Part shown: piece by piece, positions 40,384-52,452 of the stretch
Layout: each line of letters opens with the position of its first letter
Numbering within the stretch: position 1 is the first letter of the stretch
From: Escherichia coli 042
GTDB taxonomy: Bacteria > Pseudomonadota > Gammaproteobacteria > Enterobacterales > Enterobacteriaceae
Assembly (NCBI RefSeq): GCF_000027125.1
Contig: NC_017626.1
DNA: 64,000 bases
Direction: 5' to 3' (one strand)
Program-made: the position numbers and the translations under genes
Notes under the pieces: generated by a model
What the model saw: the letters and a program-made list of their open reading frames with translations, nothing else
Told to the model about the DNA's origin: nothing
Databases searched by the model: none

Positions 40384-40530
40384 ATGGCAAAGCCGATCAT
40401 CACGCTCAATGGCCTAAAAATCGTCATTATGTTGGGAATGCTGGTCATTATTCTCTGCGGTATCCGTTTTGCCGCCGAGATCATCGTGCCGTTTATTCTC
40501 GCATTATTTATTGCTGTTATATATAACTAA
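40384..40530 (+). pseudogene. tqsA: tqsA 5' fragment (first 46 native codons, then island-derived I-Y-N-stop)
   Basis: [46 protein letters not shown] then frame leaves native sequence at 40521. Confidence 0.85.
40512..40520. repeat. attL core direct repeat TGCTGTTAT
   Basis: Identical 9-mer at 51546-51554; joining the flanks restores ...[18 protein letters not shown]... of TqsA. Confidence 0.65.
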
Positions 40531-40593
40531 TTTCACTTAACGCATTGATTTAATTAAATGATTTGCACTACAAAAAGTGCCATAAATCGCAAA

Positions 40594-40617
40594 ATGACTA
40601 CACCAGTGACTACACCG
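40594..40617. repeat. Arm-type tandem repeat ATGACTACACC-AGTGACTACACCG near attL
   Basis: Same 23-24 nt tandem motif present at 51395-51418 near attR in same orientation. Confidence 0.55.
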
Positions 40618-40934
40618 TTCGGTGCACTGTATGAAACAACGTGGAACAAATAGACACAAGAAATATACAGGCGGGTCATCTTTCCAGGGGGAAGCGCGCT
40701 AATTCATGAGGGGCGTTAATGTTGATATGGGGATCCCCATAACGGGGCTACCGGATTTTTTTTCCGGTTAACTGTTAATCAGGCTGGTGGGCTTTACCTG
40801 TTTTGTAGGAGTGGTCATTATGACCATTCAGACAATGACCTTAATCAGAACTTTTCGCTAAAAAATGACGTTGGTCACGTCGTCCGGAAAGCACAAAATC
40901 CCGTCAATTTTTAATTAACGGTTAAACCGTCTTT

Positions 40935-40980
40935 TGTCACGGCGTGTCACTGGTTGTCACTCTCCGTCACGGTATGTCGC
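40935..40980. repeat. Five GTCAC-type half-sites phased at exactly 10 bp
   Basis: tGTCACggcgtGTCACtggttGTCACtctccGTCACggtatGTCGC; GTCAC is the reverse complement of the GTGAC of the arm repeats. Confidence 0.5.
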
Positions 40981-40986
40981 TACTCG

Positions 40987-41268
40987 TTAACGCCGTAACC
41001 GCTCCGGCTTCTTCCAGTGGTACGTAATTTTCTCCGTTTCCCGATACAGTGCCACGCGGCGATTGTAGGCCAGCATTTCAAGAACGCGGATCCGTATGTT
41101 GCGCATATCCACATCATTAAGCTGGATACCATCACGGCGCATCACCTCAGCAACCACACGCGCGTAATTTTCGGCGGTCACGCTGTCCGGCTGCGTGGCC
41201 TGTTCGTCATGCTGCTGGCTGATTCCGGTAACGCGGCGGATTAATCCCAGTAGTTCGGCTTCTGTCAT
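40987..41268 (-). CDS. Hypothetical island protein (93 aa from MTEAELLGLIRR)
   Basis: ORF; start chosen downstream of cos copy 1 with GGGGG SD-like upstream; longer ORF-track N-terminus would read through cos. Confidence 0.35.
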   Translation of the reverse strand: MTEAELLGLIRRVTGISQQHDEQATQPDSVTAENYARVVAEVMRRDGIQLNDVDMRNIRIRVLEMLAYNRRVALYRETEKITYHWKKPERLRR

Positions 41269-41301
41269 TGTGCCCCCATCGCTCTGATAGTCTGGTGTCG
41301 T

Positions 41302-41366
41302 CGGGTCCTTCCTGGAATTATGGCCCGTTACGGGGCGGCGACCTCGCGCGTTTTCACTATTTATGA
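41302..41366 (+). other. Lambda-type cos site copy 1 (cosN GGGCGGCGACCT at 41333-41344), followed by ACCGGACAT repeats at 41383-41479
   Basis: cgggtccttcc...gttacgGGGCGGCGACCTcgcgcgttttcactatttatgaaaatttt closely matches recalled lambda cosQ-cosN-left-end sequence. Confidence 0.7.
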
Positions 41367-41547
41367 AAATTTTTCGGGATCCATGTCCGGTTTCTCTGCA
41401 AGTTAACCATATGAAAAATATAAAAACATGCTTTCCATGAACCGGACATGCGCAAAAAACAGACACTAAAACCGGACATCGAACCAGTTAACCGAAAGTG
41501 TGCACAAATCACATGCATTGCTGCGAGTGATTAACAAGTTATCGGCT

Positions 41548-41982
41548 TTACTGTTCTGTATCGGCTGATTGCTCCATGCTGGCACGGCGAACGCTTATGG
41601 CATGACGCCACCCAGCCAGAAAGCCAGCCATTTTATTTCGTGCCTTGCTCACATCTTCCGGTGAATAGCCGTAAATCTGCAAACCTTCATCAAATCGATG
41701 TTCTGTTTCTTCACTGGAGTACTCGTCACGCTCAGATGAAAGCAGCCTGGCAAACATAATTTTTTCCAGCGCACTGGTTTCTACGTGATATCTGATGGTC
41801 TCAAGACGGCTTTTACCTGAAGACCAAAGCAATGTATGCCCGATGTGATAACCGCCAGACTTTCCGCGATCCGCATTAAGATACGGCATCCCCTGTTTGG
41901 TCCATGCGCGAATAGTGGTTCTGTTAACCTTGAAATGTTCAGCTATTTCCTGCTGACTTACAAAACAAGCTTTATCAATCAT
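41548..41982 (-). CDS. Nu1-like small terminase / packaging-specificity protein (144 aa)
   Basis: N-terminus VSQQEIAEHFKVNRTTIRAWTKQGMPYL parallels lambda Nu1 VNKKQLADIFGASIRTIQNWQEQGMPVL winged-HTH. Confidence 0.65.
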   Translation of the reverse strand: MIDKACFVSQQEIAEHFKVNRTTIRAWTKQGMPYLNADRGKSGGYHIGHTLLWSSGKSRLETIRYHVETSALEKIMFARLLSSERDEYSSEETEHRFDEGLQIYGYSPEDVSKARNKMAGFLAGWRHAISVRRASMEQSADTEQ

Positions 41983-42049
41983 AATGTTACCTTAACTGCA
42001 TGGTTAAATATTAATCAAGTGGTGGTGGTGTCACCTTCACGGAAAAACG

Positions 42050-42115
42050 TCATAAATAGCGAAAACCCGCGAGGTCGCCGCCCCGTAACGGGCCATAATT
42101 CCAGGAAGGACCCGT
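42050..42115 (-). other. Lambda-type cos site copy 2, inverted relative to copy 1 (cosN complement at 42072-42083), 88 bp upstream of terS
   Basis: Reverse complement reads ...gttacgGGGCGGCGACCTcgcgggttttcgctatttatga; 63/65 identity to copy 1. Confidence 0.7.
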
Positions 42116-42137
42116 AAAAAAGCCGGATTTCTCCGGC
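42115..42137 (-). terminator. Rho-independent terminator ending capsid operon
   Basis: Minus strand GCCGGAgaaaTCCGGC followed by T-tract. Confidence 0.6.
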
Positions 42138-42143
42138 CTTGTC

Positions 42144-42557
42144 TCAGATGTTTTTCAGTATGCGATCGATGTCGCCGTCATCGCCCTGGTTTCTGCCATC
42201 GTATGCCATGCCAGCTGATACGGCTTGCGGGCTGTGCATGTCCATAAAGTTTTCAAAGGCTGCGGTAAGTTCCGGCGCAACCTTCGGACGTTCCTGCTCT
42301 ATGGTCATGCTAAGGATGCTTTTAGCCGTACCAACATCGATACAAGGCACGTTTGCCATTGCACGCAACAGCGGCTGATAGTCTTTATGCTCATGAAGCG
42401 CCATAATCGCATCAGCGCGCGGCTTGTCCTGCTCTTCCAGTTTGTTTAGTTGATGTACGGCCTCATAGGTTGATAAACCTCTGTCAGCCATTGCCCGCGC
42501 TTCGACTTTAAATTTACTCGCCAGCGGTAGCGTCATGATGCTTTCATTCGTTGCCAT
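42144..42557 (-). CDS. Hypothetical island protein (137 aa), last gene of capsid operon
   Basis: ORF co-directional and tightly spaced after D-like gene. Confidence 0.45.
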   Translation of the reverse strand: MATNESIMTLPLASKFKVEARAMADRGLSTYEAVHQLNKLEEQDKPRADAIMALHEHKDYQPLLRAMANVPCIDVGTAKSILSMTIEQERPKVAPELTAAFENFMDMHSPQAVSAGMAYDGRNQGDDGDIDRILKNI

Positions 42558-42569
42558 CGTTCCCCCTGC

Positions 42570-42905
42570 TTATCGGGCCAGCGGCTGAACGGATACGCCG
42601 GAACCCGCAAAGGCGGCGCATTTTTTCGCATCGGTGTCGACGCTCTCAGGCCAGTTAACGGCGGCAATATTGAATATCCCCGTCTTGTAACACTGTGCTG
42701 ATTTCTGCTTTGACGTGTCCACAGGGTACGAGGTCAGATAAACAGCCTTGCCAGATTCCTGACCATCCCACGGCTTAAACTCGCCATTGTCTGCCAGCAT
42801 CAGCGGGGTAAATTCCTGAATAACGCCAGCATCAGCGGCAAAATGTACCAACGTCGTGGATACCTGCTGACTGCCTGCAAATAACTCAATGTATGGAGTG
42901 TCCAT
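42570..42905 (-). CDS. Head decoration protein, lambda gpD homolog (111 aa)
   Basis: TPLMLADNGEFKPWDG...YKTGIFNIAAVNWPESVDTDAKKCAAFAGSGVSV parallels lambda D TPLMLDTSSRKLVAWDG...[35 protein letters not shown]. Confidence 0.8.
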   Translation of the reverse strand: MDTPYIELFAGSQQVSTTLVHFAADAGVIQEFTPLMLADNGEFKPWDGQESGKAVYLTSYPVDTSKQKSAQCYKTGIFNIAAVNWPESVDTDAKKCAAFAGSGVSVQPLAR

Positions 42906-42917
42906 AGAATCCCCCCG

Positions 42918-43973
42918 TTAACCAATTTTGACGGTAACAAATTTGCGAATATCTGCCGGTACCGGCTGCGGTGCACTGTGTGTCTGCACGTACTCAATCG
43001 CCGGATCGCCGTCCTCAATCCAGTTTTTCGGGTAAAACATGTTTTGTGTTGCGCCCGTTCTTACCGCTTCCTGATCCATTATCGCACCATAGGCCACCAG
43101 CCCTTTATTGTTGGTGTTACCCAGGACCAGCAAATCAGGCTCAAGGAAATATTTTTCGGTACCATCGCTGTCAGTGTATTTGCCGGAATAGACGATAAGG
43201 GCCAGATCACCAAGATAGCCTTTAAAGCTCACCACTTCGCCCAGGTTTTTACAGGCCAGTTCGGCGGCGGATTCTGAACCACGGGAAAGATCGTACAGCT
43301 CACGGAATTTTTTAAAGCTGCGTAATGTGCGCCATACCTCAGCGCCCATAATCATGACGTTTGCGGGGCAACCAGCCTGATCAGCATAAAGCTCGATGTC
43401 ATAGATTGGGTCGTGCATGTCTTTATCCTGCTCGGACCATTTTTTACCCTTGGCCTGCTCTATGATGCAGTTTTCCGGTATTTTCCAGTCGATTTCATAG
43501 CGTTCTATGCCTTCGCCCTCAATGATGTTTTTTCCGGTCGTTACCGCATTCACCGCCAGCCATTCCACGCGTGCCTTAATGGCGTTTATCTGGCGGCGCA
43601 TGTTGCCAGTAATCAGGCGCATACGGCGATAGGTAGGGTCGTTAAGCTGTGCCGGATCTTCTCCAGCCATGCGCATGATGGTTTTCGTTGGATCGATTTC
43701 GTGCTTTGGCTTCATGTAGCCAGGTTTGATTGTGCTGGTTTCGTACCCTTTATCGCGCTGAACCTGGCTACCCACCATAGGCGAACAAAACGCCGACATG
43801 GTGACTTCTTCAATGTCCAGGGTATCCAGCATGATGTTTTGCGTGCTGAATGTCGCCACGTTCGGGAAAAACAGCGTGGTAAACAGAGGGCTGAATTTAA
43901 AATCCGCAATATCCCCGCGATTCAGGTACATGAAAAGCTGGTTAGTGTTAAGTGCCGTTGCTTTGCCTGCCAT
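42918..43973 (-). CDS. Major capsid protein, lambda gpE homolog (351 aa)
   Basis: KPGYMKPKHEIDP, DPTYRRMRLITGNMR, VSFKGYLGDLALIVYSGKY, YPKNWIEDGDPA align along recalled lambda E. Confidence 0.85.
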   Translation of the reverse strand: MAGKATALNTNQLFMYLNRGDIADFKFSPLFTTLFFPNVATFSTQNIMLDTLDIEEVTMSAFCSPMVGSQVQRDKGYETSTIKPGYMKPKHEIDPTKTIMRMAGEDPAQLNDPTYRRMRLITGNMRRQINAIKARVEWLAVNAVTTGKNIIEGEGIERYEIDWKIPENCIIEQAKGKKWSEQDKDMHDPIYDIELYADQAGCPANVMIMGAEVWRTLRSFKKFRELYDLSRGSESAAELACKNLGEVVSFKGYLGDLALIVYSGKYTDSDGTEKYFLEPDLLVLGNTNNKGLVAYGAIMDQEAVRTGATQNMFYPKNWIEDGDPAIEYVQTHSAPQPVPADIRKFVTVKIG

Positions 43974-44179
43974 TATTCACCCCCATAATTTTTATGCATC
44001 CCAAGCGCCGCAAGTAAATAAGAGCGTACAAGTGAACCTATCGACGGCTCCGGCGTCATCAGCGGATCCAGTCCAGCCGCAACGCCAGCTTCATAGTTTT
44101 TTTTGTGGCGCTGCTTGAGCACCTCCACGATTTCGGGGCTTATGTACACCGAAACACCGCCTTTTTTCTCTTCAGCCAT
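43973..44179 (-). CDS. Small protein upstream of capsid gene, possible ribbon-helix-helix fold (68 aa)
   Basis: MAEEKKGGVSVYISPEIVEVLKQRHKK; GAGGA SD; stop overlaps capsid start. Confidence 0.35.
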   Translation of the reverse strand: MAEEKKGGVSVYISPEIVEVLKQRHKKNYEAGVAAGLDPLMTPEPSIGSLVRSYLLAALGMHKNYGGE

Positions 44180-44208
44180 AGTAAGAAATTCCTCTTCGAC
44201 TAAAAAAA

Positions 44209-44236
44209 TCATAACTGGATGTTTATCCAGTTATGA
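44209..44236. promoter_or_regulatory. Perfect 12-bp inverted repeat TCATAACTGGAT-gttt-ATCCAGTTATGA in capsid-operon promoter region
   Basis: Seen directly; 30 bp upstream of operon start; second palindrome ATTGCATtttATGCAAT at 44248-44264. Confidence 0.5.
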
Positions 44237-44388
44237 TTATAATCAGAATTGCATTTTATGCAATGATATTGAGTTATGTTGCAAATTATGAAATGATTAT
44301 CCCGATCACGAACGCCAGTGCATCCAAAAACCTCATATGCAAAAGCCCGATAAGAACCCTCTGACCTTATCGGGCTTTTTTTGGGCGC

Positions 44389-44410
44389 AAAAAAGCCGGA
44401 TTGCTCCGGC
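44389..44410 (-). terminator. Rho-independent terminator after 74-aa gene
   Basis: Same GCCGGA-loop-TCCGGC module plus T-tract; preceded by second hairpin 44345-44382. Confidence 0.55.
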
Positions 44411-44430
44411 TATGTGTGCTGTGTGCTGGC

Positions 44431-44655
44431 TCAGTCTCTGATCTCTTTCAGAAATTCTATCAATGCATCTATCTGTTCAGGATTTACCGCCAGCATTTCA
44501 CCGGATAGAGCACATCTCACAAAACCATGCTGATCCTTTTCAATCAGTGCGCCCGTCTCCAGGAATGCGCGGTAATCATTGATGCTCATCGTCTCCATGT
44601 TGTCAGCATGGTATTTATCACGCTGTTTTAATATCTCATCAAATTTCATCGGCAT
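44431..44655 (-). CDS. Hypothetical island protein (74 aa)
   Basis: ORF bracketed by terminators. Confidence 0.4.
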   Translation of the reverse strand: MPMKFDEILKQRDKYHADNMETMSINDYRAFLETGALIEKDQHGFVRCALSGEMLAVNPEQIDALIEFLKEIRD

Positions 44656-44751
44656 TGTTTTTTTCCTCTGTTGTGTCTGTTTGTTTCAGATAGTAACTAT
44701 GCCTGACCGTGACGAAAACCCGGTAATGCGCCATACCGTTTCAACTGGTGC

Positions 44752-44774
44752 AAAAAAAGCCGGATTTCTCCGGC
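44752..44774 (-). terminator. Rho-independent terminator after PerC-like gene
   Basis: GCCGGAgaaaTCCGGC plus T7 on minus strand. Confidence 0.6.
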
Positions 44775-44781
44775 TGTTTGA

Positions 44782-45054
44782 TTAGCTGTCCTGGTAATTG
44801 CGCCATATTTCATCACCAGCACCATCTATACCCATTTCGGCATAAGTGCGATCGACTGCCTTTTTCAGGTCTCCGAAATTATCCGGCGGCTCCGGTGCCC
44901 TCTGTGCCTTCCTTGAACATTCCAGCCGTCGCATCGTGATGTGATGCCGTTCCTTGTCTGTCTCCACCAGCTGCATGACTTCACCCCATCGCGCCGCCGC
45001 CCTCCGGTAAAAGCCTTTCGCCTCCAGTTCCTCCGCTATGCGGTCATGTACCAT
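44782..45054 (-). CDS. PerC/Pch-family transcriptional regulator (90 aa)
   Basis: AEELEAKGFYRRAAARWGEVM resembles recalled Pch/PerC signature (…LEAQGLWRRAAARW…); GAGGGGG SD before ATG. Confidence 0.55.
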   Translation of the reverse strand: MVHDRIAEELEAKGFYRRAAARWGEVMQLVETDKERHHITMRRLECSRKAQRAPEPPDNFGDLKKAVDRTYAEMGIDGAGDEIWRNYQDS

Positions 45055-45064
45055 CGTCACCCCC

Positions 45065-45475
45065 TCAGAACGAAATATCATCACCGTAAGGGTCATCGCC
45101 TCCCGCTGGTGGCTGATTACCCTGTGTGCCTGTGGTTTTGCGTCTGTTCCCGCCTGGACGTGCCGCGCGGGCACTGATTACGCTGTCTGCGATAACCTGC
45201 CAGCCCTGCCGCGTTTCTCCGTTCTGTCCGGTCCACTGGCTTACCTGCATCGTGCCGGATACGCTGGCAACATCGCCTTTTTGATGTTTAGCCAGGAAGT
45301 CGGCCTGTTTGCCAAATGCGATGACCGATAACCATAACGTCGCCTGTCCGTCCTGTGCCTGGCTGCATGGCAAAGATACCGCCATACGCGCCAGCGTCAT
45401 CGGTGTGCCCTTGCTGGTCTGTTTTACCTGCGGGTCGTCCACCAGCCGCCCGTAAGCGGCTATCTGTGCCGTCAT
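45065..45475 (-). CDS. ssb: Single-stranded DNA-binding protein (SSB)
   Basis: OB-fold region and Gly/Pro-rich tail ending DDPYGDDISF (cf. E. coli SSB C-terminal DDDIPF). Confidence 0.8.
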   Translation of the reverse strand: MTAQIAAYGRLVDDPQVKQTSKGTPMTLARMAVSLPCSQAQDGQATLWLSVIAFGKQADFLAKHQKGDVASVSGTMQVSQWTGQNGETRQGWQVIADSVISARAARPGGNRRKTTGTQGNQPPAGGDDPYGDDISF

Positions 45476-45723
45476 AATTCCACCTCTCCGGTTTTAACGT
45501 TGATGGTTGTTACCTGTTCCGCTTCGGCAATCTCCCGTTCTGTCAGCGTGGCAAAGTTTGCCGCCGCCGTGGTCATGAATGCGCTTATCAGGTCGGGATG
45601 TTCCTTCGCGTATCCTTCCCGCGTGTGGCGGTCTATCGTTCTGATTGCCACCTTTAAGGTGTGCTCAGTCATGTCTAACGCTTTATATTTTGGCTCTGTT
45701 CTGTCTCTGCGTTTTTGGGTCAT
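45472..45723 (-). CDS. Hypothetical small protein between ori and ssb
   Basis: ORF; start uncertain (45723 or 45672). Confidence 0.3.
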   Translation of the reverse strand: MTQKRRDRTEPKYKALDMTEHTLKVAIRTIDRHTREGYAKEHPDLISAFMTTAAANFATLTEREIAEAEQVTTINVKTGEVEL

Positions 45724-45734
45724 TTCTCGCAACC

Positions 45735-45926
45735 TCTCACTTTTTCGCCTCACTTTTTCAAGCGTCTCACTTCGTCGCAGTTGGGATTTTCGGTTTTTCT
45801 ATGTGTGTGTTTCATAAGTATTTTTTTACCCCTCACTTTTGAGGATGTATACAGGTCGAAAAGTGAGGGAGAGCGGGCTAATTTTGGCCCTCTTTCTATC
45901 CCCCTCGCTTTTGCTCCTCACTTTTA
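45735..45926. repeat. Iteron array (CTCACTTTT, at least 6 copies, both orientations) with AT-rich spacer: putative island replication origin
   Basis: Copies at 45735, 45748, 45766, 45832, 45858 (inverted), 45916; directly 3' of pri-rep gene. Confidence 0.55.
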
Positions 45927-47324
45927 TAGCGGCGCTACATCATCCCCATCGATACGAATAACCCCATCTTTTTCCAGCTTGTACAGCCAGCGCCGGAAGT
46001 TTTTCATTTCATACCCCAGCTTTTTCATGTCATCACGTAACAGCGGGATCGTGCACTTGTCGCCGTTCTGTGTGCGTGAACGGATGCACCCCCATAGCGC
46101 GGTATGGTTTTCCGTCTTGTTCCCTGCCTCCTCGATGCGCTCCAGTTCAACAGGAGGGCGCGGATCATCCACCACCACCAGCGACGTGATTAATTCACCG
46201 TCAGCGTCGGTAAAAAGCTCCACCACGCGTAAGTCATATGCGGCTTCTTTGAGTTCCTCCGCGTCCTTCATTTTGGTGCATGAGATAACCAGCGCTTCGC
46301 TTCCTGCGTCCTCCCTGCGTATCCGGTATTCAGCATCCAGCGAAGCACGAAATGCACTGGAACCGCGCGCGCCTTTCGTCTCATCCTTGCCGGAATGGTG
46401 AACCACCAGCACCGTGGCCCCTGTGCGTCGTTTCAGTTCGTCACAACCACGGATAAACGCCCCCATATCACGGGAATCATTTTCATCATTCCCACCAAAG
46501 CAACGCGCCAGCGTATCCAGAATAATCATGCGTACAGGTTTACCCGTTTCCCGCTCCACCTGACGGGCAGCGATAACCATTTCATCAACATCAAGCGGGG
46601 CAGCCGGAAAGATGGGGCGGTTTACCAGATACAGATTTTTCACCTGCTCATCGTGCACAACCTCCCAGGCTTTTACACGACGCGGAACACCTATACCGCC
46701 TTCACCAACCACATAGAGAACCGCACCATGTGCAACCCTGCGGCCTCCCCACTGGCGACCAGTGGCAACATGGCACGCCCACGATCCAGCAAGGAATGAT
46801 TTATAGGACCCGCTAGCCCCGTATATGCTGCATAGCGATACCGCCGGAATAATCCCCTTAACCACGTAATCCAGTTGCGTGTCGTATCCGGTAGATCCAA
46901 CGCTCATCGGTAGCGTGGTTTTTCGCTGGTGTTTTTTTTCTTCCGCCGGCTCTTTCCCGCGCACCCGTTCCAGGTATTCGCGCCAGTTCTCCCGCATATG
47001 GCTGTGCATCCCTTCGGGGTAATAATTCGCATCAGTTACACCCGCCGCCGCCAGCTTGTGCGCAATGGCATTAATATTTGATGGCCTGATGTGGCCTGCC
47101 TTGTACAGCCGGACACAATAGCGCCCCTCGTCGATGATTCTCAGGTCTGCCAGTTCATCCAGTTGATCATCAGCCAGCACAACGGGAGGCACATTATCGC
47201 CAGCCAGTCGCCCGTCCTGTTCCTGCCACTGTTTCGCATGTGCCCAGGCATCACTACCCGCAAAAATAATGACTTCGGTCATCTTGTCGTAAGGCTGTTT
47301 TTTTAAGTTCGGTGCGCTTTTCAT
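45924..47324 (-). CDS. Primase/replicase-type AAA ATPase (RepA/AAA_25-like, 466 aa)
   Basis: Walker A GASGSYKS, Walker B MIILDTLARCFGG, VVHHSGKDETKGARGSSAF sensor region. Confidence 0.8.
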   Translation of the reverse strand: MKSAPNLKKQPYDKMTEVIIFAGSDAWAHAKQWQEQDGRLAGDNVPPVVLADDQLDELADLRIIDEGRYCVRLYKAGHIRPSNINAIAHKLAAAGVTDANYYPEGMHSHMRENWREYLERVRGKEPAEEKKHQRKTTLPMSVGSTGYDTQLDYVVKGIIPAVSLCSIYGASGSYKSFLAGSWACHVATGRQWGGRRVAHGAVLYVVGEGGIGVPRRVKAWEVVHDEQVKNLYLVNRPIFPAAPLDVDEMVIAARQVERETGKPVRMIILDTLARCFGGNDENDSRDMGAFIRGCDELKRRTGATVLVVHHSGKDETKGARGSSAFRASLDAEYRIRREDAGSEALVISCTKMKDAEELKEAAYDLRVVELFTDADGELITSLVVVDDPRPPVELERIEEAGNKTENHTALWGCIRSRTQNGDKCTIPLLRDDMKKLGYEMKNFRRWLYKLEKDGVIRIDGDDVAPL

Positions 47325-47620
47325 TTCTTGCCCCTGAATCCGTTAACCATGGTTTTCAGCTTCTGGATGTTTGCCCGTGCCCTGGCGTTGCTGGTGGGCA
47401 CGTTATGCGGCGCGGTCTGTACCAGAGAAAAATCACGCCGGAACTGATAAACAGGCATCACGCAATCATATTCGTAACCTTCACGGCGGTAGGTTACGCG
47501 CCGTTCTTCCACGTCCTTAATCATTACCGTGCCGCCGTACTGGTCGCGGTAAATATCACCGCGCGTAAATTTAGGGTGAGTGTTGCCACTGGCAGTTAAG
47601 CCAGAATATTTAAGTTTCAT
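47321..47620 (-). CDS. Hypothetical island protein (99 aa)
   Basis: ORF in tight operon; stop overlaps pri-rep start. Confidence 0.45.
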   Translation of the reverse strand: MKLKYSGLTASGNTHPKFTRGDIYRDQYGGTVMIKDVEERRVTYRREGYEYDCVMPVYQFRRDFSLVQTAPHNVPTSNARARANIQKLKTMVNGFRGKK

Positions 47621-47625
47621 TATTT

Positions 47626-47859
47626 TTATTCTCCGGTGTGCTGTTCTTTATATCTGTCGTGCAATAGATCTATTTCTTGCAGTTCCATTATTACAGGCTC
47701 AAGAAGCGTTATTAATGCTGTGGCAATTCTTGATTTTTGTTTGTCGCGTTCATTGTCGCCAAGTGTTTCAAGCCATATGCGCAATATTTCCATCATGTTT
47801 TCACTGTGAGAAAGTGCAAGAAATGCGCGGTCTATTGTTTGGTGGTAAATATCACGCAT
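47626..47859 (-). CDS. Hypothetical island protein (77 aa)
   Basis: ORF in operon. Confidence 0.4.
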   Translation of the reverse strand: MRDIYHQTIDRAFLALSHSENMMEILRIWLETLGDNERDKQKSRIATALITLLEPVIMELQEIDLLHDRYKEQHTGE

Positions 47860-48319
47860 GGCTTACATCCTCAGGAAATTTTCTTCTATAACGCGCCTCT
47901 GCCACATATTCCGCATAATCGGCGGCGATATTCAGTACATCAAGCCCCGTTGATTTATATTCTCTCGTGGAAAGTAAGAAAAAAGCCGCTCTAATAAGTT
48001 CTGGCATTGACGAAAGCGCATCAGCCGCATCATCAGGAACGCCGGAAAATTCCTGTTTCAGGGAATTAAAACGATCATCACGCATAACCCCCCCCCCATT
48101 TTCACAATCAGCAATCAGGATAGCTTTGGCCTCATTCAGCGCCGTATCAGCACTAAATTGCATGACAGCCAGTGAGTGAGGAACGAAAGCACCGGCATAT
48201 TCTGTTTCGCTGGTGGCGTGCTTATGTGCCCTGTCCGCGATAACAGAAATATCAATCAGCGCGTGCATCAGCGTTTTGATGGCTTCGGCGGCTGCGTCCG
48301 GTGTGGTTTTATTGTGCAT
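47852..48319 (-). CDS. Hypothetical island protein (155 aa)
   Basis: ORF in operon. Confidence 0.45.
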   Translation of the reverse strand: MHNKTTPDAAAEAIKTLMHALIDISVIADRAHKHATSETEYAGAFVPHSLAVMQFSADTALNEAKAILIADCENGGGVMRDDRFNSLKQEFSGVPDDAADALSSMPELIRAAFFLLSTREYKSTGLDVLNIAADYAEYVAEARYRRKFPEDVSHA

Positions 48320-48521
48320 AAAGCATCCCCTGAATATTCGTGTTAATCATTCCGGCACGTTTTGTGATTTCCTGTAATGATTCCCTTGTGGCGACAATTG
48401 CTTCATCTGGTAAGTGGTAATTACACACCACGCGACCTTTATCCACATTGACCAGTAGCTGCCCTGTGAATTTCTCACGAAACTGAATGCGGTTAAGGTC
48501 AGTAAGTGACAGATTAATCAT
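48309..48521 (-). CDS. Hypothetical island protein (70 aa)
   Basis: AGGAGG immediately upstream of ATG at 48521. Confidence 0.45.
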   Translation of the reverse strand: MINLSLTDLNRIQFREKFTGQLLVNVDKGRVVCNYHLPDEAIVATRESLQEITKRAGMINTNIQGMLYAQ

Positions 48522-48711
48522 GGCGCACCTCCTGACGAATACGGGCGGCAAATACAGCAACACAACCGGACGGGCAACGGTTACGCGCTTCGCGTTCCGT
48601 CCAGGCGGTTACGTGGATGATTTGAGATTCTCCGGCACTCAGTGCCAGAAAACGCCACACAAAGGCCGTTTGTGTGTGTACAAGGTGTGGTATATGATTT
48701 ACAGCAACCAT
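48514..48711 (-). CDS. Hypothetical island protein (65 aa), first gene of leftward operon
   Basis: AGGAG SD upstream of ATG at 48711. Confidence 0.4.
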   Translation of the reverse strand: MVAVNHIPHLVHTQTAFVWRFLALSAGESQIIHVTAWTEREARNRCPSGCVAVFAARIRQEVRHD

Positions 48712-48804
48712 AACGGCTCCTAGTTTACGTTGTTGGTTAGAAGCCCTGCGAGTGGTAACGACACTTGCGGGGCTTTGTCTTTTCATCGATTACCTTGATA
48801 AAGG

Positions 48805-48884
48805 TGTCAGCCACTATATTAGTAACGGGTGTCAGCCACGTCAATAGTGTTTTTCCGTTTTCTTGTGTGTATACTGTCAGCCAC
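48805..48884. promoter_or_regulatory. Three direct repeats TGTCAGCCAC in divergent promoter region, with TATACT -10-like element
   Basis: Repeats at 48805-48814, 48830-48839, 48875-48884. Confidence 0.5.
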
Positions 48885-48905
48885 CTAATAACGAGGAAAT
48901 CAGAT

Positions 48906-49085
48906 ATGGCAACAAAAGCAGTTAATGCAAAATCCAAAAAGCTTGAGGCTCGAGTACCACACGCAATAGCTGATGCTGTAGAAAATTTAAAGGAAGATGG
49001 CGAAAGTACAGGGCAATTTATCGTTTCGGCACTTGAAGGCGAGATCAAACGCCGCCAGCGCCGCAAGGCCAAAGAATCAGAATAA
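48906..49085 (+). CDS. Ribbon-helix-helix (CopG/Arc-like) putative repressor (59 aa)
   Basis: KKLEARVPHAIADAVENLKEDGESTGQFIVSALEGEIKR fits beta-strand/helix/helix RHH pattern; divergent from main operon. Confidence 0.5.
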   Translation: MATKAVNAKSKKLEARVPHAIADAVENLKEDGESTGQFIVSALEGEIKRRQRRKAKESE

Positions 49086-49127
49086 TCACTATCAGCGCCG
49101 TGGTGTGAGGTATTACGGCGCATTGCT

Positions 49128-49316
49128 ATGCAGGACAACACAATGACCGATAAAGAATTGACCAAAACATTATCACCGGCACGGAAAAGACGGCGCAGAA
49201 AGATAGAGCATGAATCAGAAAGATTCGCACCATGTGCTTTTGCCCTTGAGCAATTCCTTAAAGAGTACAGGGAAAAGCGCTCATTGCAGGTATGGCAACG
49301 AACTGAACCAGACTGA
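49128..49316 (+). CDS. Hypothetical small basic protein (62 aa or shorter from MTDKEL)
   Basis: ORF followed by hairpin plus T7 at ~49410-49440. Confidence 0.3.
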   Translation: MQDNTMTDKELTKTLSPARKRRRRKIEHESERFAPCAFALEQFLKEYREKRSLQVWQRTEPD

Positions 49317-49585
49317 TTGCATTGCCCACCAGCCTGATAGCGGCTATCATCCCCGTGCTTATGTTTGGGATCACACACACAAACGGCGCAGCGGGTTATC
49401 TGTTCAGAAAGGCGGCTCCATTTCGGGGCCGCTTTTTTTATACCTGAAAAACCCCAATTTTGTTGTTTTTCAGTTTCACCAGGGCGAACGAATCCCCGCC
49501 CACGTTCTGGCGTATATTCAATCTTCATGGTTATAGCTCTGTGTTCAGATGATTGATGTGTGGCGGCTGCGTGCCGCCAGCGTGA

Positions 49586-49774
49586 TTAATGAACTGCCTT
49601 GCAGCTATCCTTCCAGGCCAGAACCTCGGATAAAGACCAGCCAACGGAACGACCGCCAAGTTTACGACGTGATGGGAATTGTCCGGCCTTTTCCAGGCGG
49701 TAGCGACACGTACGGCTAAGGCCGGTTAGTTTTTCGCATTCTTTTTCACGTATAAACCGATCAGTGCTTAACAC
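49586..49774 (-). CDS. alpA: AlpA-family excision/transcription regulator
   Basis: 62 aa MLSTDRFIREKECEKLTGLSRTCRYRLEKAGQFPSRRKLGGRSVGWSLSEVLAW. Confidence 0.8.
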   Translation of the reverse strand: MLSTDRFIREKECEKLTGLSRTCRYRLEKAGQFPSRRKLGGRSVGWSLSEVLAWKDSCKAVH

Positions 49775-50048
49775 TATTGCCCCCCCTTTCGTTTCTTAAA
49801 GAGTCATCAGGTGTCTTATTGTGTCGTATTGTTCCCGCTAGAGTGATGAATGGCAAATATTGAGGATGTATGATTTACAGAAAATGAAACAGTAAGAATA
49901 AAATCTTTTAAATTCATGTTAATACAAAGGCATAAAATATTGTTTCATGCCTTTTTTCTCGCTCTTTAAAGAGTGATTCGCTAGTGTATAAAAAACCAGT
50001 GACACATTAAAAATCAGCCACTTATAAATCTGTATGCTTTTTCGCCTC

Positions 50049-50123
50049 TTGTTCGTGGTTGTTCCACATTGTTGCTCATTGTTGCACGTTGTATCTGTTC
50101 GCATATACAGTATGCGCATACTG
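50049..50123. promoter_or_regulatory. Five TTGTTSC-like repeats at ~10-bp spacing plus 16-bp perfect palindrome CAGTATGCGCATACTG (50108-50123) in int-alpA intergenic region
   Basis: Seen directly. Confidence 0.4.
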
Positions 50124-50140
50124 AAAAAACACGAAAAAAA

Positions 50141-51370
50141 TTATTTTCTTCTGGCTACTGGTAGCGTGGTTACGTTTTCATGTGTTCCCGCCAGTATCCC
50201 TAACCGCTCCGTCCACATATCCAGCGCATTGCGTTTAGCATCCAGATAACGGGAATGATTATAAACTCGCTGCATTCCTGGCATCTGGTGGCCTGTAAGC
50301 TGCTCCACGACATGCGGATCAACGCCTAAATCGTTCAGCATGGTTGTAAAGGTGCGCCGGATGTCATGCAGTGACCAGTGAGGATGATTAAGCCTCCTGT
50401 GCGCTAATCTTCCATACTGCGATACGCTGGCCTCCTGTTTCACTTCCCCCAGCAATAAGCCCGTGTGCCTGTTCTGCTCCACCAGCTGCGTGACGAACGG
50501 CAGGATCGCTTCCGGTATGGGCCGGAATATTGCGACCTTCGTTTTGCTGTGCTCCTTCGGAACGGTCCATAGCATTTCCGTAAAATCCCACTCCCCGATC
50601 TCCGATAACCTCAGTTCTACCGTTCTGGCTCCGAAGACAATCAGGAGGCGGATTAACGCGACGTAGTAAGGGGAGAATATTTTTTTGTCCAGTGCCTGCA
50701 ATAATTCGCCAAGTTCTTTGTTACTTAAGACACGTTCGCTTATATCCGGTTTTTTCCCAACGTCCGCCACGTTCAGATCGTCCAGAACGTTGCTGATTGC
50801 ATAGCGCCGCCTACGGCAGAACTTAAGCGCCTGTTTGCACGCCTGTAGCACGAATCCGGCAGTAACAGGCGTTCGCTTTGCCACCTGGTCAAAACAGGCC
50901 AGCCAGTGCCGTAGCTCGCATTTATCCAGCGGCATAGCACCAATCTGCTGTATTACGTGATTATTAAGTCGCCTTTTCAGGGCGATATAATCCACGCGGT
51001 TTTCCTTTACGTAATACTCAAGCCAGTAGGTGAGCGCATCGCCAACCGTTACCGGCTTTAACGCTTCCTGTACGGTGTAATTAAGCTCATGACGTGGATT
51101 TTTCCCCTCTGCCAGCCATGCGCGACACTGGGCGGCTTTTTCCCTGGCTGATTTCAGGCTCAGATCAGGATAACTTCCCAGCTTAATGCGTTCGGGTCGT
51201 GTCTCCCTTCCCGTTCCGGCCCTGTATGTGAAATACCAGGTCAATTTCCCTGATGTTAAATATTTCACGCTCAGGTTTCCGCCATCACTATAAAACGTGT
51301 TTTTCTCCGCTGGCTTACCATGAAGTTTCCTTAGCAAGGTATCGCTCAGTTTGTTCATTGCTCTGCTCAC
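50141..51370 (-). CDS. int: P4-type tyrosine integrase (start GTG 51370 or ATG 51358)
   Basis: 409-aa ORF; catalytic region ...HDIRRTFTTMLNDLGVDPHVVEQLTGHQMPGMQRVYNHSRY; adjacent to attR. Confidence 0.9.
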   Translation of the reverse strand: MSRAMNKLSDTLLRKLHGKPAEKNTFYSDGGNLSVKYLTSGKLTWYFTYRAGTGRETRPERIKLGSYPDLSLKSAREKAAQCRAWLAEGKNPRHELNYTVQEALKPVTVGDALTYWLEYYVKENRVDYIALKRRLNNHVIQQIGAMPLDKCELRHWLACFDQVAKRTPVTAGFVLQACKQALKFCRRRRYAISNVLDDLNVADVGKKPDISERVLSNKELGELLQALDKKIFSPYYVALIRLLIVFGARTVELRLSEIGEWDFTEMLWTVPKEHSKTKVAIFRPIPEAILPFVTQLVEQNRHTGLLLGEVKQEASVSQYGRLAHRRLNHPHWSLHDIRRTFTTMLNDLGVDPHVVEQLTGHQMPGMQRVYNHSRYLDAKRNALDMWTERLGILAGTHENVTTLPVARRK

Positions 51371-51394
51371 GTTTTACCCCCTCTTTACGAAAAA

Positions 51395-51418
51395 GTGACT
51401 ACACCAGTGACTACACCG
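51395..51418. repeat. Arm-type tandem repeat GTGACTACACC-AGTGACTACACCG near attR
   Basis: Matches 40594-40617. Confidence 0.55.
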
Positions 51419-51545
51419 ATCGTTGCACAAAGGGCTACAACGTGAAACAAGCTGGAACAAGGAAAATCACAAATCTGTTGATAATCAAAAACATAATGCA
51501 CAGCCTGAAACATTATGAAACAGCAAAAAACACCAAATGATAAAA

Positions 51546-51554
51546 TGCTGTTAT
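51546..51554. repeat. attR core direct repeat TGCTGTTAT
   Basis: Identical to 40512-40520. Confidence 0.65.
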
Positions 51555-51567
51555 TCTTAACCCGCTG

Positions 51568-52452
51568 GTGCAACACATGGTCCGCTGGCGAGTGCCGCGT
51601 GTACTGGCGGTGTCGATTTTGATGACCATCATCGTGATGGCGATGGTGTTGCTGTTAGCTTATCTGGGTTCCGCGCTCAACGAGTTGACGCGGACGTTAC
51701 CGCAATATCGCAACTCTATTATGACGCCGCTGCAAGCGATTGAACCGTTGTTGCAACGCGTAGGGATTGATGTCTCAGTTGACCAACTGGCGCATTACAT
51801 TGATCCGAACGCGGCGATGACGTTGCTCACCAACTTATTGACGCAGTTATCTAATGCCATGTCATCAATATTTTTATTGCTGCTGACGGTGCTGTTTATG
51901 CTGCTCGAAGTGCCACAATTGCCCGGAAAATTTCAGCAAATGATGGCGCGTCCGGTTGAAGGGATGGCGGCGATTCAGCGTGCGATTGACAGTGTTTCTC
52001 ATTATCTGGTGCTGAAAACAGCCATCAGCATCATCACCGGCCTGGTCGCCTGGGCGATGCTCGCCGCACTCGATGTTCGCTTCGCTTTTGTCTGGGGATT
52101 GCTGGCCTTTGCGCTTAATTACATCCCTAATATTGGTTCAGTTCTCGCAGCAATTCCCCCTATCGCTCAGGTACTGGTGTTTAATGGCTTCTACGAAGCG
52201 TTGTTGGTGCTGGCGGGATATCTGCTGATTAATCTGGTCTTCGGCAATATTCTGGAGCCGCGCATCATGGGACGTGGGCTGGGGCTTTCGACATTGGTGG
52301 TATTTTTGTCGTTGATTTTTTGGGGATGGTTGTTAGGACCGGTGGGTATGCTGCTTTCCGTGCCGTTGACAATTATTGTCAAAATTGCGCTTGAACAAAC
52401 AGCGGGAGGTCAAAGCATCGCCGTTCTGTTAAGCGATCTCAATAAAGAGTGA
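51568..52452 (+). pseudogene. tqsA: tqsA 3' fragment (lacks first ~55 codons; internal GTG/ATG present)
   Basis: [26 protein letters not shown]... continues TqsA frame to native stop. Confidence 0.85.

Follow-up and report, generated by a model that had tools for sequence, protein, structure and literature searches.

An ssb-linked pchE allele on an EcCICFT073-type PICI of Escherichia coli

Organization of the perC locus

The window, meaning the whole 64-kb stretch of DNA analysed here, carries a PerC-family gene within an integrated island, between the island ssb and the capsid operon. The main features are listed below in coordinate order.

40521..51554, minus strand: whole island, EcCICFT073 PICI type by gene content, ~11.0 kb, inside tqsA between 9-bp TGCTGTTAT repeats
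44207..44264, minus strand: capsid-operon leader, not a PerC companion, from sequence; conserved in CFT073 and absent from Sp7
44431..44655, minus strand: orf74 (ECs1589 homologue, phrog_1957), a small and optional gene that lies after perC and ahead of the capsid module, with terminators on both sides
44751..44775, minus strand: intrinsic terminator AGCCGGAGAAAUCCGGCU followed by U7, 6 nt past the perC stop, from a terminator scan
44782..45054 (stop codon included), minus strand: pchE-type (group 3) PerC-family gene, 90 aa, from the ORF and Pfam PF06069
45060..45067, minus strand: ssb-perC junction TGAGGGGG, in which the ssb stop overlaps the perC Shine-Dalgarno; genes 10 nt apart, from sequence reading
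45065..45475, minus strand: island ssb, encoding 136 aa that end in an acidic ...GDDISF tail; it immediately precedes perC, with which it shares a transcription unit
45472..45723, minus strand: orf83 (ECs1586 homologue, phrog_1231), first gene of the orf83-ssb-perC cassette
45736..45925, no strand assigned: putative replication origin with six AAAAGTGAGG-type iterons, between the RepA-helicase gene and orf83

The perC ORF runs on the minus strand from an ATG at 45054-45052 to a TAA at 44784-44782 (90 codons). It begins MVHDRIAEELEAKGFYRRAAARWGEVMQ, and the full PerC-family protein encoded at 44782-45054 is MVHDRIAEELEAKGFYRRAAARWGEVMQLVETDKERHHITMRRLECSRKAQRAPEPPDNFGDLKKAVDRTYAEMGIDGAGDEIWRNYQDS, in which the motif quoted by the first-pass annotation, AEELEAKGFYRRAAARW, forms residues 7-23. 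The Shine-Dalgarno sequence, GAGGGGG, lies 5 nt 5' of the ATG and overlaps the ssb stop codon (TGA). A longer, GTG-initiated ORF of 130 aa was rejected as the gene, because homologues begin with MVHD, MIHD or MIKD. On the same strand, RefSeq places a 42-aa hypothetical protein at 44697-44825 (WP_001301569.1), overlapping the perC 3' end and the terminator; this is probably a spurious gene call. No PerC-family ORF other than 44782-45054 was found in the 64-kb window, and the LEE is absent from it.

Family assignment, selection and distribution of the PerC-family protein

The first-pass annotation had placed the protein in the PerC/Pch family, and a profile search bears this out from end to end: Pfam PerC (PF06069) is matched with E = 4.3e-43 and 146 bits, residues 1-89/90 against model positions 1-89/90. 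The match to phrog_994 has E = 3e-47, and several further PHROGs families labelled "transcriptional activator" are also hit. The protein keeps all the family-conserved residues (L10, E11, G14, R17, R18, A19, R22, W23, C46, M74 and G75), each either invariant or conserved to at least 90% across an alignment of 63 family sequences that are 26-90% identical to the window PerC.

Compared with the Sakai allele, perC has a dN/dS of 0.23 (0.05 for the neighbouring ssb); on this measure the gene is under purifying selection and therefore a functional coding gene. We considered whether perC might instead be a decaying passenger without function, since truncated or frameshifted alleles exist in databases (P0040, P0033 and partial entries) and many islands do without the gene. 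This is very improbable, given the intact ORF, the good ribosome-binding site, the dN/dS value, the retention of every family-conserved residue, the presence of an allele at least 99% identical in 358 of 5426 complete E. coli genomes and the published phenotypes of pchE (PMC6265319).

The identical gene is entered in RefSeq as "PerC family transcriptional regulator" (WP_000233304.1). Many complete E. coli genomes (O55:H7, O145:H28, O103:H2) match a 1.1-kb query around perC with 100% identity, and perC DNA matches occur in 962 of the 5426 complete genomes. Some O157:H7 genomes are among those with matches of at least 99% identity, some of them with an allele 100% identical to that of the window. 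The family itself is small. A profile search of 1.84 billion cluster representatives returned 251 clusters (50% identity) at E <= 0.001, and tblastn found homologues in 138 plasmid records and, rarely, in true phages (7 of 50,697 phage records). A genome-contig scan with the PerC alignment gave 96 pattern matches, none of which tblastn confirmed, and no cross-species synteny; the neighbourhoods of relatives described below come from IMG/VR and from exact-protein look-ups, one of which matched just a 340-bp contig.

Uhlich and colleagues classed pchE as a group 3 perC homologue (PMC6265319, PMC7369912). PchE (ECs_1588), encoded on OI-51/Sp7 of O157:H7 Sakai, is 90% identical to the window PerC over 90 residues, with nine substitutions. 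By this identity and by its ssb-linked position in a PICI, the window gene is an allele of the E. coli O157:H7 gene pchE and belongs with it to group 3 of the perC homologues. RefSeq and earlier papers already cover the gene, the family to which it belongs and its carriage on E. coli PICIs (PMC6092414, PMC3378721, PMC11773190).

The island is an EcCICFT073-type PICI

The TGCTGTTAT repeats at the island junctions occupy 40512-40520 and 51546-51554, and the flanks are tqsA, not phoQ and roxA. In order, the island encodes int, alpA, Icd-like genes, an RgdR-like DUF4222 protein, the RepA helicase, the origin, orf83-ssb-perC and orf74, followed by orf68, a gpE-like capsid protein, a gpD-like decoration protein, a scaffold-like protein, RppA and a final small orf. 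It thus combines int, alpA, a replicase with an iteron origin and an Rpp redirector with a size in the ~10-15 kb range, and it contains neither tail nor lysis genes. On gene content the island is an EcCICFT073-type PICI, and the first-pass statement that perC is carried on an island holds. Helper-phage induction and transfer have been shown for EcCICFT073 itself (PMC6092414, PMC6739421).

Several observations concern the island at large. The host gene tqsA (ydgG, AI-2 transporter) is split at about codon 46 into parts at 40384-40530 and 51555-52452: the first 46 codons end at ~40520, the remainder resumes at 51555 and a 48-codon N-terminal stub is left. In the window strain tqsA is probably inactivated; its remainder could restart solely at an internal GTG. 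Just inside both island ends lies a direct repeat of ~65 nt (40590-40655 and 51390-51465) that holds the tandem GTGACTACACC AGTGACTACACCG; these repeats may be arm-type binding sites for the integrase. The DUF4222 protein (47321-47620, minus strand) shares 80% identity with ECs1581 (RgdR), a regulator of type III secretion encoded on OI-51, and keeps the RGD motif at residues 20-22. A 144-aa protein (41548-41982, minus strand) is 99% identical to RppA (c1503) of EcCICFT073, the redirector of helper-phage TerS to the island cos site; the RefSeq annotation of some genomes has a longer protein here, under the name "terminase small subunit". Another protein, of 137 aa (42144-42557, minus strand; phrog_1999), bears a weak likeness to phage head-maturation protease/scaffold proteins over their C-terminal part (phrog_53 positions 496-567). 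Taken with the other head genes, the gene content suggests an island that supplies shell, decoration and scaffold proteins itself and has no gene for a portal, protease or large terminase.

perC closes a cassette that begins at the origin

The gene perC is the last of a conserved cassette that begins at the island origin and ends at an intrinsic terminator. The hairpin of this terminator falls within an RNA fold of -17.7 kcal/mol (z = -3.6), and its sequence is identical in Sakai Sp7; the ssb-perC spacing of ~10 nt recurs in both Sp7 and CFT073. At the putative origin, five of the AAAAGTGAGG-type iterons share one orientation and one is inverted. Sp7 and CFT073 carry other iterons at this place, as expected from the replicon specificity of PICI origins (PMC6092414). 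From these comparisons, origin and replicase appear to have been swapped as a unit while the adjoining orf83-ssb-perC block was retained. At the other end, orf74 varies among related loci, being present in some and missing from others, CFT073 included.

To place the cassette among its relatives, IMG/VR was scanned with the PerC alignment. The scan returned 309 relatives, of which the best 80 loci (74-100% identical) were analysed, with neighbours typed by tblastn. Of these loci, 77 extended far enough upstream to be judged, and in 72 of them PerC was immediately preceded by an SSB gene. The pairing was still found where PerC identity had dropped to 64% and, in one locus (L012), to 37%; the elements concerned carry genes for AlpA, DUF4222 and a primase. 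One E. coli element (L011, 7001-8694) has AlpA, a DUF927 primase and an SSB with PerC after it; within 3 kb there are also a Q-antiterminator gene and two more PerC-family ORFs, so that several perC paralogues are clustered there.

In O157:H7 PA20, a tricistronic ECs1586-ssb-pchE mRNA has been mapped by RACE, with its start just upstream of ECs1586 (PMC7369912). The promoter mapped in O157 falls in the origin region, which differs in the window island; expression of the window cassette in the uninduced state is therefore an assumption.

Comparison with the closest known systems

Sp7 is the same element as O-island 51 and CP-933C, described by Flockhart et al. as carrying PchE (PMC3378721), and as EcCIEDL933, the prototype of capsid-forming PICIs (bioRxiv 10.1101/2022.09.08.507074). 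Its pchE occupies the same place after ssb as the window gene and is followed by the identical terminator and the same orf74. Over the whole orf83-ssb-pchE-terminator-orf74 block the DNA of the two islands is nearly identical, and the likeness stops abruptly at the capsid modules. As a capsid-forming PICI, Sp7 has a head module of the HK97 type; its replicon is primase-type and its site lies between roxA and phoQ. In the window island, by contrast, a RepA-helicase replicon is combined with a head module of the lambda gpE/gpD type and with RppA, and the site is inside tqsA.

EcCICFT073, the prototype Gram-negative PICI, encodes a PerC (WP_000233305.1) that is 79% identical to that of the window and, at 82 aa, has a shorter and different C-terminus. 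Its gene order is that of the window island (int-alpA-...-DUF4222-replicase-ori-orf83-ssb-PerC-orf68-capsid-decoration-scaffold-RppA), its RppA is 99% identical and its capsid leader is 92% identical, palindrome included. Unlike the window island, it has a primase-type replicon, lacks orf74 and is inserted between roxA and phoQ.

More distant is EPEC PerC (pMAR2 perABC), of the same Pfam family and 42% identical to the window PerC. Together with EHEC PchA/B/C it shares with the window protein the blocks D..A..LE..G(F/L)(Y/W)RRAA.RW, RE...RR..C and AA..T...MG(I/L)...FRNY. The genes of these proteins belong to a plasmid regulatory operon or to lambdoid prophages and have no adjoining ssb. They activate LEE1/ler, whereas reports on PchE-type proteins say that these do not (PMC6265319, PMC11773190).

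The capsid-operon leader is inherited with the capsid module

The first-pass annotation had suggested that PerC could activate the late genes of the island, with the promoter region of the capsid operon, which contains a palindrome at 44209-44236, as the place to test this. The leader there has a perfect -10 element, TATAAT (44241-44236), and a weak -35 element, TTGCAT (44263-44258; 3/6 match). The spacer holds a 17-bp palindrome, ATTGCAT-N3-ATGCAAT (44248-44264), and a second palindrome with 14-nt arms (44207-44238) reaches from the -10 region into the transcribed sequence, with a T-run after it. The RNA of this second palindrome folds with -19.9 kcal/mol (z = -7.1) and is terminator-like. 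This layout suggests control by a repressor or by attenuation; both palindromes lie in or past the core promoter, positions typical of repressor and attenuator sites. Antitermination of the leader by a helper-phage Q protein is conceivable. Further copies of the palindrome half-site that might serve as operators were not found beyond chance in the window, and none were found in Sp7. Three terminator-like hairpins, detected by the terminator scan, separate perC from the capsid operon.

If PerC, made from the replication operon, switched on the capsid/packaging operon at the palindrome promoter, the two should be inherited together. Among the best 80 of the 309 relatives, the capsid module after PerC was gpE-type in 44 loci, HK97-type (the module of capsid-forming PICIs) in 31 and a ClpP-protease/capsid fusion in 3; in the other 2 the contig ended too early. 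Every class of PerC identity to the window was found with both main modules:

PerC at least 99% identical: gpE-type 17, HK97-type 2
PerC 95-98% identical: gpE-type 5, HK97-type 8
PerC 89-94% identical: gpE-type 11, HK97-type 17
PerC 74-78% identical: gpE-type 11, HK97-type 4

Replicase types likewise assort freely among these loci. Comparison of the loci thus shows free recombination of the cassette with various replicases and with capsid modules of three kinds. The palindrome, allowing up to two mismatches per arm, was present in 44/44 gpE-type loci vs 0/31 HK97-type loci, and the leaders of the two types have no shared sequence.

The converse scan of IMG/VR, with the exact palindrome, gave 23 contigs, 22 of them with room upstream. 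PerC lay between ssb and the palindrome in 11 of these 22, and in 2 a divergent PerC occurred only elsewhere in the element; for the remaining 9, an HMM search of the six-frame translation found no PerC-family ORF. Since the palindrome tracks the capsid type and occurs on PerC-free contigs, it is to be counted as part of the gpE-type capsid module; PerC, for its part, moves with ssb, and palindrome and PerC can each occur without the other. Annotated PICIs without PerC exist in complete genomes (L009, L010), and PerC is present in PICI-like elements without capsid genes (L007; EcCIMP1, PMC11773190). Two gpE-type loci in IMG/VR (L096, L104) have no PerC beside ssb and carry a 45%-identical PerC at the far end, past the capsid operon. 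By their arrangement, PerC can therefore occupy a second position in PICIs.

We consider it unlikely that PerC is an island late-gene activator. The idea draws on the position of perC between the replication and capsid modules, a frequent place for late activators, on a capsid promoter whose perfect -10 and 3/6 -35 are compatible with a need for an activator, and on the local AT-richness of the leader (~40% GC), where H-NS anti-silencing could act. Yet PerC alleles at least 99% identical to that of the window precede both gpE- and HK97-type modules, whose leaders are unrelated, and the third capsid type is found after PerC too; half of the palindrome contigs (11/22) lack an ssb-side PerC, capsid-free elements carry the gene, three terminators intervene and the palindromes sit at repressor-type positions. 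In addition, transcription of pchE is steady without induction and is lowered by SOS induction (PMC7369912, PMC6265319), the opposite of what a late activator would do. Activation through the palindrome is accordingly disfavoured: PerC is not co-inherited with the promoter that a dedicated late-operon activator would act on.

Predicted fold and mode of action

An AlphaFold2 model built from a 20-sequence alignment (mean pLDDT 85) places helices at residues 5-13, 16-27, 33-50 and 60-74. The protein is basic in its N-terminal half (pI 9.1) and acidic in its C-terminal third (pI 4.2), and the predicted fold looks like a small helical bundle resembling one and a half TPR repeats or an MIT domain, followed by an acidic tail. 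A Foldseek search with the model gave no significant match; MIT domains headed the non-significant ones, and fold matches discriminate weakly for a helical protein of 90 aa. No solved relative was found in the PDB by sequence, with either the single protein or the 63-sequence profile; the best candidates, PACSIN and ribosomal protein uS3 (E 0.01-0.06), were treated as spurious. No DNA-binding fold of the helix-turn-helix, winged-helix, ribbon-helix-helix or zinc-finger kind was recognized in the model.

Outside PerC, a weak likeness to the AraC negative regulators (ANR) was seen. The window protein matches NCBIfam ANR_neg_reg (NF033650) with 20.4 bits (E = 3e-4) over residues 7-52, below the 32-bit cut-off, and ten further diverse PerC-family proteins, EPEC PerC included, give in-register matches of 14-22 bits. 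Assignment of the window protein to ANR was rejected on both counts, the score being below the cut-off and a true PerC giving the same weak match. Both families consist of small helical proteins, and ANR members such as Aar are alike in register to the first three PerC helices while lacking the fourth helix and the C-terminal MGI...RNY block. These alignments suggest a common three-helix core and give no ground to reclassify the window protein. ANR proteins act through protein contacts.

It is quite unlikely that the window protein is an ANR-type anti-activator or repressor, as has been proposed for the PerC-like protein of EcCIMP1 that silences LEE1. Such a role would agree with the sub-threshold in-register match, with repression of LEE1-lux by the EcCIMP1 homologue (PMC11773190) and with repression of csgD by PchE (PMC6265319). 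The match does not separate repressors from activators, however, as the activator EPEC PerC scores in the same way, and the PerC-specific C-terminal helix and MGI...W/FRNY tail of the window protein fall outside the 54-position ANR model.

Group 1 Pch relieves silencing by H-NS, StpA, Hha and YdgT at LEE1 (PMC4764244). Given this published anti-silencing and the lack of a recognizable DNA-binding fold in the model, we infer that PerC most likely modulates transcription through protein-protein contacts and not through sequence-specific DNA binding. Silencing of the whole island by H-NS was considered and found not compelling, the island having ~50% GC with AT-rich dips that are just local.

Published functions of PchE and its relatives

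Over-expression of PchE brings strong, Ler-independent repression of csgD, curli and biofilm and increases flagellar gene expression and motility, and deletion of pchE has just a slight curli phenotype (PMC6265319). EPEC PerC has a regulon that reaches beyond the LEE, to the fim switch and nitrate respiration (PMC5293775). PICI-borne PerC homologues are known (PMC6092414, PMC11773190): the EcCIMP1 paper notes PerC-like genes in EcCIEDL933 and EcCICFT073 (PMC11773190). According to that paper, which cites Porter 2005, these two copies had no effect on LEE1 fusions; EcCIMP1's own PerC-like protein represses LEE1 in a LEE1-lux assay (PMC11773190).

The first-pass annotation had likened the protein to the PerC/Pch activators that switch on virulence regulons. 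The comparison is apt for group 1 Pch and EPEC PerC, and fails for the group 3, PchE type: pchD and pchE affect the LEE little (PMC6265319), and the PICI copies are without effect on LEE1 fusions by the secondhand account just cited. Its further suggestion, cross-regulation of host loci, is plausible by analogy with the 90%-identical PchE, for which lowered csgD/curli and raised flagella have been published, and is not new.

Discussion

Our preferred reading, held with moderate confidence, is that the window gene, a pchE allele on a PICI, acts as a host regulator of the lysogenic-conversion type, not as a dedicated activator of the capsid operon. By analogy with PchE, orf83-ssb-perC would yield a single mRNA whose level is steady as long as the lysogen is not induced. 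The dosage of PchE would then shift host surface programmes, with csgD and curli lowered, flhDC and flagella raised and little effect on the LEE, although the host effects of PchE are known mostly from plasmid over-expression. At the molecular level, the predicted 10.5-kDa helical bundle would contact nucleoid-associated or transcription proteins; group 1 Pch displacing H-NS/StpA/Hha from LEE1, and the distantly related ANR proteins, may serve as models.

The tight and deep ssb-PerC linkage suggests, in addition, that PerC has some part in the life cycle of the satellite itself, for which a pure host-regulator reading has no explanation. PerC might work with the co-translated island SSB, for instance through a TPR-like surface that binds the acidic SSB tail, or might bind a helper-phage or host protein, favouring island replication or hindering the helper. 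Such a life-cycle factor would account for an adjacency, with its stop/Shine-Dalgarno overlap, that is conserved from 100% down to 37% PerC identity, for a small family concentrated in mobile elements and rare in true phages, and for the likeness to TPR folds, which typically bind peptides. We hold it doubtful: when post-origin genes of EcCICFT073 were cloned individually, only c1503 (RppA) cut lambda plating (PMC6739421), EPEC PerC and prophage Pch act without an adjoining ssb, and about half of otherwise similar islands lack PerC, which is therefore not essential for the satellite cycle.

As a discovery the finding adds little, since gene, family and PICI carriage had already been annotated or published. 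Its value for annotation is that the island can be described as an EcCICFT073-type PICI in which a pchE allele is accompanied by RppA and an RgdR homologue; all three are small regulators or effectors with known links to EHEC phenotypes. A more speculative, and rather improbable, extension is that PchE-type PerC proteins are primarily satellite genes, coupled to ssb and replication-proximal, whose TPR-like surface would bind a host, helper or SSB-tail peptide to tune satellite expression or replication, and that LEE-activating PerC and Pch would be later exaptations. In the literature searched, we found no paper on the reason for the PerC-ssb coupling in satellites or on the role of PerC there. 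What the analysis does is sharpen these two questions: the cause of so tight a coupling, and the benefit that the satellite draws from PerC.
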